Shown here piece after piece: positions 30,396 to 30,453 of a stretch of 64,000 nt of DNA. Source of the DNA: Nanobdellota archaeon (GTDB lineage: Archaea > Nanobdellota > Nanobdellia > Pacearchaeales > GW2011-AR1); the NCBI GenBank assembly GCA_018830525.1, contig JAHJSH010000017.1, positions 2,688 through 66,687 of the forward strand, given 5' to 3'. The position numbers and the translations under genes were made by a program. The notes beneath the pieces were generated by a model. The model was not told where the DNA came from. It was given only the letters and a program-made list of their open reading frames with translations, and did not search any database. The first letter of the stretch is position 1, and each line of letters starts with the position of its first letter.

Positions 30396-30453
30396 TCGTA
30401 GCTCATCATCGTATTCGCCGAAGCGAGACCAAAGGGACTATACGATGTGGGCT
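30396..30453 (-). ncRNA. Conserved structured 5' leader of tRNA-Ser (58 nt), homolog of 31766-31820
   Basis: GCCCAC-ATCGTA-TAGTCCCTTTGGTC-TCGC-TTCG-GCGA-A-TACGAT-GATGAGCTACGA. First 14 nt duplicate the tRNA 5' end; nested helices. Confidence 0.55.

Follow-up and report, generated by a model that had tools for sequence, protein, structure and literature searches.

A structured leader cassette beginning with a copy of the tRNA 5' end precedes tRNA-Ser genes in DPANN archaea

Direct repeats of tRNA gene ends are left by integrative elements at the att sites of archaea and bacteria. Archaeal tRNA genes may themselves be disrupted, carrying bulge-helix-bulge (BHB) introns or occurring in split or permuted form; transcription attenuators and T-box leaders operate through mutually exclusive helices (1:2, 2:3, 3:4). 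The leaders of synthetic RNase P riboswitches are engineered and ligand-dependent, and mask the leader itself (PMC8925977). The tRNAs of N. equitans are leaderless; their promoter lies 26-27 nt upstream and transcription starts at +1 (PMC10100707). No description of a natural structured leader that starts with a copy of the 5' end of its own tRNA was found in a full-text literature search. Here we describe leaders of this kind in front of two tRNA-Ser genes, and their counterparts in other DPANN archaea.

Both genes lie on the minus strand of the window, by which the whole 64-kb stretch of DNA analysed is meant. A sequence-only reading had placed an element of 55-58 nt directly before each tRNA-Ser; the layout it gave stands, and the start of the first copy is corrected from 30453 to 30452 (57 nt). 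The features are as follows.

30315-30395, minus strand: tRNA-Ser(AGA), intact, 81 nt, no encoded CCA (ARAGORN; Rfam tRNA model, 47 bits)
30396-30452, minus strand: leader cassette copy 1 (module A, short-tail form), 57 nt, abutting the 5' end of tRNA-Ser(AGA)
30439-30452, minus strand: copy 1, repeat of tRNA nt 1-14 (GCCCACAUCGUAUA), 14/14 against its own downstream tRNA
30440-30447, minus strand: copy 1, P1 5' strand, leader nt 6-13 (CAUCGUAU; predicted folds and pair counts)
30427-30439, minus strand: copy 1, joining strand AGUCCCUUUGGUC, leader nt 14-26 (alignment)
30415-30426, minus strand: copy 1, P2 hairpin UCGC-UUCG-GCGA, leader nt 27-38 (fold, pair counts, RNAalifold)
30407-30414, minus strand: copy 1, P1 3' strand, leader nt 39-46 (AUACGAUG; fold and pair counts)
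30396-30406, minus strand: copy 1, short tail AUGAGCUACGA, reaching the putative 5' cleavage site (predicted fold)
31685-31765, minus strand: tRNA-Ser(GGA), intact, 81 nt (ARAGORN; Rfam tRNA model, 52.8 bits)
31766-31820, minus strand: leader cassette copy 2 (module A, short-tail form), 55 nt, abutting the 5' end of tRNA-Ser(GGA)
31807-31820, minus strand: copy 2, repeat of a tRNA-Ser 5' 14-mer (GCCCAUAUCGCGUA), 11/14 against its own tRNA
31808-31815, minus strand: copy 2, P1 5' strand (UAUCGCGU; fold and pair counts)
31795-31807, minus strand: copy 2, joining strand AGUCCUUUCAGUC (alignment)
31783-31794, minus strand: copy 2, P2 hairpin UCGC-UUAA-GCGA (fold and pair counts)
31775-31782, minus strand: copy 2, P1 3' strand (ACGCGAUA; fold, pair counts, direct sequence reading)
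31766-31774, minus strand: copy 2, short tail AUAGGUAAA (predicted fold)

Read as RNA from 5' to 3', copy 1 is GCCCACAUCGUAUA-GUCCCUUUGGUC-UCGCUUCGGCGA-AUACGAUG-AUGAGCUACGA and copy 2 is GCCCAUAUCGCGUA-GUCCUUUCAGUC-UCGCUUAAGCGA-ACGCGAUA-AUAGGUAAA; the two align without a gap over nt 1-46 (the core), and the optional C that had been written into the joining strand is not needed. The identity of the first 14 nt of copy 1 with the tRNA had been seen correctly; the 14-mer of copy 2 has its exact counterpart at the start of tRNA-Ser(CGA) in a relative, L005. The P1 3' strand of copy 1 complements nt 6-13 of the leader copy and of the real tRNA alike, and that of copy 2 forms 8/8 pairs with the leader copy and about 5/8 with nt 6-13 of the real tRNA. 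The joining strand of copy 1 is the counterpart of the pseudoknot 5' strand of relatives (see below), and a pairing partner for it sought within copy 1 was not found; in the predicted fold the tail of copy 1 pairs imperfectly with leader nt 1-5. Both leader sequences are present in an independent assembly (L001), and covariance model R1 scores copies 1 and 2 at 68.4 and 68.8 bits, respectively.

The structure of the leader is genuine and has been kept by compensatory changes. Its outer helix P1, described earlier as 6 bp long with two compensated pairs, exists and is 8 bp long (nt 6-13 with nt 39-46), enclosing the 13-nt joining strand and the 4-bp hairpin P2; three of its pairs differ on both strands between the copies (C-G/U-A, U-A/C-G, A-U/G-C). 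These three pairs hold 6 of the 11 core differences between the window copies; of the remainder, 3 lie in the joining strand, where two are complementary to each other (C19..G23 to U19..A23), and 2 in the P2 loop. Core identity is 76%, as against 69% for the tRNAs. The pattern shared by the leaders had 0 expected matches in 100 shuffles of the window, and its origin by chance is excluded; the covariance model finds only these two copies in 64 kb. Each leader folds better than its own shuffles (z = -2.2 for copy 1, -2.7 for copy 2), and P1 and P2 are predicted independently by RNAalifold.

An exact-pattern scan of one genome per species (185,579 species) gave 12 matches, six in DPANN metagenome-assembled genomes (labelled Pacearchaeota, Woesearchaeota, Nanoarchaeota or 'archaeon') and six in bacteria. 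Five of the six DPANN matches lie immediately upstream of tRNA-Ser (UGA or GCU), the sixth (L009) being cut by the contig end; the bacterial matches are without tRNA-Ser, and their number fits chance expectation. Five more loci were obtained from a metagenome scan, all adjoining tRNA-Ser. Two matches in viral contigs fall in GC-rich coding sequence and were set aside as chance. Covariance model R1 found no further copies in 144 kb, and no Rfam family overlapped the leaders, either in the window scan at gathering thresholds or at E up to 10 (window region) and up to 5 (six relatives). These scans show the cassette to be linked exclusively to tRNA-Ser wherever the downstream sequence can be read. 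It occurs in Nanoarchaeota-type (DPANN) archaea and consists of a copy of the first 14 nt of the tRNA and a body of 41-56 nt, and a closely similar core stands upstream of four tRNA-Ser isoacceptors in several lineages. Conservation and covariation, which the sequence-only reading had proposed to look for upstream of tRNA-Ser genes in relatives, thus extend to other DPANN genomes.

In the nine distinct copies, a small sample, 92% of P1 is paired and three of its pairs have changed on both strands; these pairing and covariation values were reached by 4/500 shuffles. The search patterns themselves forced P2 and part of the joining strand to be conserved in the relatives, so this conservation carries no value as evidence. 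Template switching during replication is another possible source of compensatory changes within inverted repeats, and can produce them in a single step. The joining strand of six distinct relatives pairs over 7-9 bp with a longer tail to form a pseudoknot that ends 3-6 nt before the tRNA; tested against shuffled tails, the pairing is significant in each (P = 0.0025-0.04). Within it, one change is double (UUCGG/CYGAA to UUUGG/CCAAA) and the tRNA-sense strand has G-U wobbles; the pairing is absent from the window copies and from L018, which have the short-tail form. The P1/P2 fold and the pseudoknot of the relatives are thus shown by covariation and folding. Such a pseudoknot is more elaborate than mere insulation would need, which hints at a further function. 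Non-Watson-Crick cells in P1 are more often A-C than G-U; L006, L017 and L018 have an A12-C mismatch where other lineages have the compensating U, and this suggests that the tRNA has converted the copy and that compensation has yet to follow.

The promoters of both window genes are positioned relative to the cassettes.

30478-30485, minus strand: TATA-like box CTTAAAAA, ending 25 nt upstream of nt 1 of copy 1
31845-31852, minus strand: TATA-like box TTTAAAAA, ending 24 nt upstream of nt 1 of copy 2

The boxes are thus spaced from the leaders, as had been claimed, and no TATA-like box was found at that spacing before the bodies of the window tRNA-Ser genes. For the leaderless tRNA-Asp and tRNA-Gly of the window the box ends 22-26 nt before the mature 5' end; the same spacing is seen for the leaderless tRNA-Thr, Phe, Met and Ser(AGA) of relatives. 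In eight cassette-bearing genes it separates the box from the first base of the first cassette (in L019, an exception, the box found by the scan ends 38 nt upstream), and among the cassette-bearing genes scanned a box was never found 22-26 nt before the tRNA body. Since the spacing of leaderless tRNAs is retained to the first cassette base, the cassette should be transcribed as a 5' leader; the promoter geometry, read from sequence, agrees in this with the earlier proposal that the leader belongs to the primary transcript. Transcription would start on the first base of the copy, at 30452 for copy 1.

An unbiased sample of orthologous loci was drawn by way of a 184-aa neighbour gene and not through the element. 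It yielded five further loci with tRNA-Ser(GGA) and/or tRNA-Ser(AGA) whose promoters are recognisably the same; a leader was found at none of them. Copy 1 is a clean 57-nt indel relative to L029 (promoter 33/35 and tRNA 79/81 identical), and in L029 and L022 its promoter stands immediately before the tRNA. Against L027, copy 2 is likewise a clean indel, of 55 nt; there the 36 nt upstream are identical and abut the tRNA directly (tRNA 78/81), and the same indel is seen against L028. Of the 13 tRNA-Ser genes sampled in the subclade, 3 carry the cassette. The cassette is thereby shown to be gained and lost between close relatives, and because the nearest relatives have near-identical promoters and tRNAs without it, it is not a fixed control element. 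Copy 1 looks like a recent gain, given its perfect 14-nt repeat, the lack of a leader in all six of its sampled orthologues and an 89% identity of its core to the GGA cassette of L018. The 14-mer of copy 2, which matches the tRNA-Ser(CGA) of L005 and not its own tRNA, indicates shuffling between paralogues.

Several other observations were made at these loci. The product of the GDPD neighbour gene is 100% identical to a protein that NCBI assigns to a 'Nanoarchaeota archaeon' metagenome-assembled genome. The gene is common to Patescibacteria at about 55% identity, and L022 was the single useful syntenic locus reached through it; the 184-aa gene served better for synteny. In the same genomes some tRNA 3' ends are the site of insertions bordered by repeats of the terminal 6-19 nt of the tRNA (one of the insertions, beside tRNA-His, in opposite orientation), and a 1.6-kb Fic-gene insertion is flanked by 43-nt tRNA-Gly 5' halves.

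Two further bodies, modules B (in L006 and L007) and C (in L009), are organised in the same way: the first 14 nt of the tRNA are repeated (13/14 in L007), an inner hairpin is present, and another strand is complementary to the repeat. Modules stack as A+B or C+A (L006; L009/L012) or are repeated in tandem (L021), and tandem copy number differs between L019 and L021. The closing strands of modules B and C resemble remnants of the D-stem 3' strand and the acceptor 3' strand; the joining strand and P2 5' strand of module A resemble the variable arm and the start of the T-stem, as in L013, where GUCCCUUCGGUCUCGC and GGCCCUUCGGGGCUCCC (variable arm/T-stem start) agree at 13/17 positions by direct reading. 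Given these resemblances to tRNA arms, descent of the cassette from an internally deleted tandem copy of tRNA-Ser is reasonable; adjacent Ser-Ser genes are present in L005. L019 also carries a 65-nt intron in the anticodon loop.

A number of known identities were considered for the leader and rejected. An archaeal BHB tRNA intron requires two 3-nt bulges, and the leader helices show bulges or mismatches of at most 1 nt; for split or permuted tRNAs, the tRNAs are contiguous and the leader is without an anticodon arm. As for a box C/D sRNA, a C-box-like AUGAUGA occurs in copy 1 without CUGA, both are missing from copy 2, and relatives do not conserve the boxes; an H/ACA guide was rejected for want of conserved boxes in the leaders. 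Pairings of the leader with its own tRNA (variable arm, 6 bp, in copy 1; anticodon loop, 8 bp, in copy 2) differ between the copies and are missing in L018, and are therefore treated as chance. A leader-trailer duplex (GUCUC/GAGAC and GCGAAU/AUUCGC) pairs well in copy 1 and poorly in copy 2, and probably reflects shared hairpin stems.

The reading towards which we lean, tentatively, is a self-folding leader cassette, specific to tRNA-Ser, which RNase P probably removes and which is spread and lost by recombination across the repeated tRNA 5' segment. The cassette lies exactly between a promoter spaced for +1 and an intact tRNA, so that transcription would begin on the first base of the copy. 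The leader RNA would fold first and alone, the 3' part of the body pairing with nt 6-13 of the copy to form P1; the tRNA would fold separately and be released by endonucleolytic cleavage at its 5' end, for which RNase P is the likeliest enzyme. The contig of L012 that bears a cassette also encodes an RNase P RNA (132 bits); an Rfam scan of the 64-kb window found none. In copy 2 a canonical acceptor stem would be obtained only after leader removal, its leader copy placing U6 opposite C67. P1 has probably been kept by selection against capture of the tRNA 3' strand by the duplicated 5' strand, as is suggested by the closing strand of copy 2, which matches the leader copy rather than the tRNA, and by the compensating U of other lineages where L006, L017 and L018 have A12-C. 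When the closing strand of P1 was scrambled, the predicted dominance of decoy pairing did not change in nearest-neighbour folding, and insulation by P1 is therefore not shown by the folding model. Spread and loss are probably due to recombination or gene conversion that uses the 14-nt repeat and the 5' segment of about 26 nt that the compared tRNA-Ser paralogues share.

Competition of the leader's GCCCAYA with the genuine acceptor strand, and with it a processing or regulatory switch, had been suggested in the sequence-only reading. The precursor would toggle between a leader hairpin with a free tRNA, cut by RNase P, and a swapped state that is not cut, in which the copy pairs with the 3' acceptor strand of the tRNA and the closing strand sequesters nt 6-13 of the real tRNA; a factor or condition would set the ratio of the two states and thereby the supply of mature tRNA-Ser. 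Nearest-neighbour folding gave -57.0 kcal/mol for the swapped state and -53.0 kcal/mol for separate domains in copy 1, and -45.3 and -45.1 kcal/mol in copy 2. The swapped state was iso-energetic or favoured at 7/7 loci, in a model outside which lie tRNA tertiary stabilisation and folding order, and decoy competition is thus physically credible. Also in favour of a switch, the copy tracks the tRNA acceptor by lineage (GCCCACA, GCCUACA, GCCUCUG, GCCGACA) with nt 1-5 mostly outside P1, the three unrelated bodies have only the 'copy plus anti-copy' logic in common, and RNase P is indeed controlled by synthetic leaders masking its cleavage site (PMC8925977). The comparative data, however, do not support it. 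The decoy of copy 2 has a U-C mismatch to the tRNA 3' strand while its closing strand pairs 8/8 with the leader copy, so that the selected structure is the self-contained leader; module B of L007 has A at nt 1, opposite C72; and the greater part of the decoy (nt 6-13, with nt 1-5 in part) is engaged in pairing within the leader in the predicted folds. Tertiary stabilisation and co-transcriptional order would both favour the leader hairpin with the free tRNA. No sensor or ligand is evident, nothing was found that points to a dedicated switch, and the element is missing in the nearest relatives with the same promoters and tRNAs, where it is thus unneeded for tRNA-Ser control. We regard the switch as unlikely. 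It is equally doubtful that modules A, B and C make up a new natural class of cis-acting RNA, acting on maturation by strand exchange or through mimicry of seryl-tRNA synthetase contacts and serving as a transferable, strain-specific tuning of serine isoacceptor supply in archaea whose tRNAs are otherwise leaderless.

A sporadic distribution with conserved sequence also fits a DNA-level mobile element. The cassette would then be a miniature insertion or integration scar, the tRNA 5' end having been duplicated as a 14-bp target site and the RNA fold being incidental; P1, the P2 palindrome and the 'pseudoknot', the last as terminal inverted repeats, would be signals for a recombinase or transposase. 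A direct repeat of a tRNA segment does flank the insert (14/14 in copy 1, 11/14 in copy 2), and the clean indels, the tandem variation, the insertions at tRNA 3' ends and between tRNA-Gly 5' halves in the same genomes, and the excess of A-C over G-U among the non-Watson-Crick cells of P1 all agree with this. So much of the earlier alternative of a decayed att duplication stands, namely the direct-repeat, insertion-like architecture; the lack of structure that it assumed does not. The body of just 41-56 bp, on the other hand, has no ORF, an autonomous partner or integrase was not found, and the genome, metagenome and viral scans yielded no larger version of it. Complementary ends of 7-9 nt, the pseudoknot strands, occur in the long-tail relatives; the window copies and L018 have none, so that the recent-looking copy 1 lacks a terminal inverted repeat. 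Dispersed copies at unrelated sites, as a MITE would have, were not found, every readable match being immediately 5' of tRNA-Ser with no extra copy in 144 kb and no true match in viral contigs. An internal strand complementary to the target, adapted by lineage and present in three unrelated bodies, would not be expected of a transposon end, and the mismatches of the pseudoknot are G-U on the transcribed strand. A mobile element of this kind therefore seems to us rather improbable.

Less probable again is an independent functional RNA for which the tRNA is merely the 3' processing signal, the 5'-triphosphate leader acting alone after RNase P cleavage as a mimic of seryl-tRNA synthetase contacts (acceptor-proximal strand, variable-arm-like helix, T-arm-like hairpin), a decoy for a nuclease directed at tRNA-Ser, or a small ribozyme or aptamer. 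The compact fold with its covarying pseudoknot, the likeness of the joining strand and P2 5' strand to the variable arm and T-stem (13/17 in L013), a core as conserved as the tRNA, and a sporadic distribution typical of conflict systems speak for such an RNA; it is opposed by the lack of an Rfam match at E up to 10 and of conserved C/D or H/ACA boxes, by window copies without the pseudoknot and by the unrelated bodies of modules B and C, and the leader RNA would have to be stable.

Scarcely credible, finally, is an intron or alternative 5' exon in which the leader copy is the true tRNA 5' end and the body with the second copy is a D-loop insertion (14/15), spliced or tolerated, with RNase P unnecessary: the transcript would have a perfect tRNA 5' strand at its start, as do those of N. 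equitans, which lacks RNase P, and the swapped state is thermodynamically accessible, but the downstream tRNA is complete without splicing (ARAGORN, Rfam), the leader copy of copy 2 would give a mismatched acceptor stem, and a strict bulge-helix-bulge cannot form, since with both splice sites in identical sequence its central 4-bp helix must be self-complementary and the 4-mer needed is missing from most 14-mers.

The removable, self-folding cassette that we prefer would matter in several respects. Most tRNAs of the lineage are apparently leaderless, so that the cassette would restore dependence on 5' cleavage for some tRNA-Ser genes, which bears on the retention or loss of RNase P in reduced archaeal genomes. 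Its clean presence or absence at near-identical loci affords a direct view of tRNA genes gaining and shedding flanking RNA modules, with acceptor stems and leaders visibly shuffled among paralogues. Should the alternative pairing operate in vivo, tRNA 5' maturation would gain its first natural riboregulator; should it go unused, the leader would be a tidy case of compensatory evolution neutralising a potentially harmful duplicate strand.

In comparison with known systems, the cassette resembles att sites in that a copy of a tRNA terminal segment flanks the insert and the tRNA stays intact, an arrangement frequent in this window; it differs from them in its tiny, non-coding body of 41-56 bp, its recurrent core, the internal strand complementary to the repeat with compensatory changes, and a repeat that begins exactly at +1, under a +1 promoter. 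With the disrupted tRNA genes of archaea it shares the DPANN lineage and duplicated tRNA pieces beside tRNA genes, whereas here the downstream tRNA is contiguous and complete and no BHB spans the cassette. As in attenuators and T-boxes, alternative pairings are possible (copy with anti-copy, anti-copy with real 5' strand, real 5' strand with 3' strand) and are extended by stacked modules; unlike in these, there is no terminator, specifier, sensor or mRNA, and the regulated product would be the tRNA itself. As for the leaderless genes of N. equitans, the spacing from promoter to +1 is strict for most tRNA genes here and in relatives, and the first cassette base occupies the place of the tRNA +1; unlike in N. 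equitans, a structured leader of 55-70 nt follows the putative start site and 5' cleavage would thus be required, and in contrast to that organism, which has no RNase P RNA, at least one cassette-bearing relative has one. The nearest analogue is the leader of synthetic RNase P riboswitches, likewise a structured 5' leader able to mask or expose the region of the RNase P site; the present leader is natural, has no known ligand, and its competitor is a copy of the tRNA's own 5' strand. It thus joins three known themes in a new way: the direct repeat of a tRNA end, the structured pre-tRNA leader and the promoter geometry of leaderless tRNA genes.

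Units of 75-180 nt lie 3' of many tRNA genes (Ser, Met, His, Gly), and each closes with a repeat of the final 6-19 nt of its tRNA. Most of these units have in common a hairpin with UUUGAGCA or UUCGCUUUGAG after it, and the motif GAGAUGCAAAU; some are arranged in tandem. Two lie downstream of the tRNA-Ser(AGA) of the window, whose old 3' end GTGTGGGCGTAT recurs at 30122-30133.

30122-30314, minus strand: tRNA 3' units; also in the related archaeal loci L005, L006, L007, L012, L020, L022, L027 and L028

A unit of the same type adjoins tRNA-His in opposite orientation, and the 3' end of that tRNA recurs in diverged form on both of its flanks, as CGCCTTCCGTCC and CACCTCCCGTCC; orientation and flanking copies together suggest an insertion with target duplication and not a native trailer. 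The TATA-like box closest to tRNA-His ends 62 nt upstream, compared with 22-26 nt for other tRNAs, and this gene may have a real leader or a different promoter.

14394-14465, plus strand: tRNA-His
14466-14580, plus strand: tRNA-His-adjacent unit

Copies of tRNA-Gly parts are found elsewhere in the window. Each unit of a tandem repeat terminates in GGCCCGCGCAT, the tRNA-Gly 3' end; 704-930 holds no intact tRNA. Related fragments occur at 7319-7384 and 12411-12457. The 5' half of tRNA-Gly(GCC) is duplicated exactly over 43 nt, and the two copies bracket a 1.6-kb segment containing an ORF with a Fic-type motif, HPFSDGNSRATR; the segment looks like a cassette integrated at the tRNA 5' half. A further tandem array comprises at least eight repeats (74-98% identity).

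704-930, minus strand: two perfect 98-nt tandem units and a partial third
12478-12520 and 14087-14129: exact duplication of the tRNA-Gly(GCC) 5' half
12852-14009, plus strand: 385-aa ORF
20021-20340: tandem array, 40-nt period

Among relatives, an intron-bearing tRNA-Ser(GCU) sits 3' of the module A leader, a small structured cassette starting with a copy of tRNA nt 1-14, of which L021 has at least two tandem copies and L019 one. Adjacent tRNA-Ser genes in L005 are spaced by at most 1 nt, which implies that their transcripts would be separated endonucleolytically.

L019 1771-1916 and L021 107-252: tRNA-Ser(GCU) with 65-nt anticodon-loop intron
L005 253-416: adjacent tRNA-Ser(UGA) and tRNA-Ser(CGA)

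Acceptor stems of the tRNA-Ser genes AGA and GGA are shuffled among relatives (GCCCACA, GCCUGUA, GCCCAGG, GCCCGUA). A tRNA-Ser(AGA), which carries A34, next to a tRNA-Ser(GGA) is a conserved arrangement in seven related genomes; as far as is known, archaeal tRNAs seldom have A34.

30315-30395, minus strand: conserved tRNA-Ser(AGA); also in L018, L022 and L027-L030
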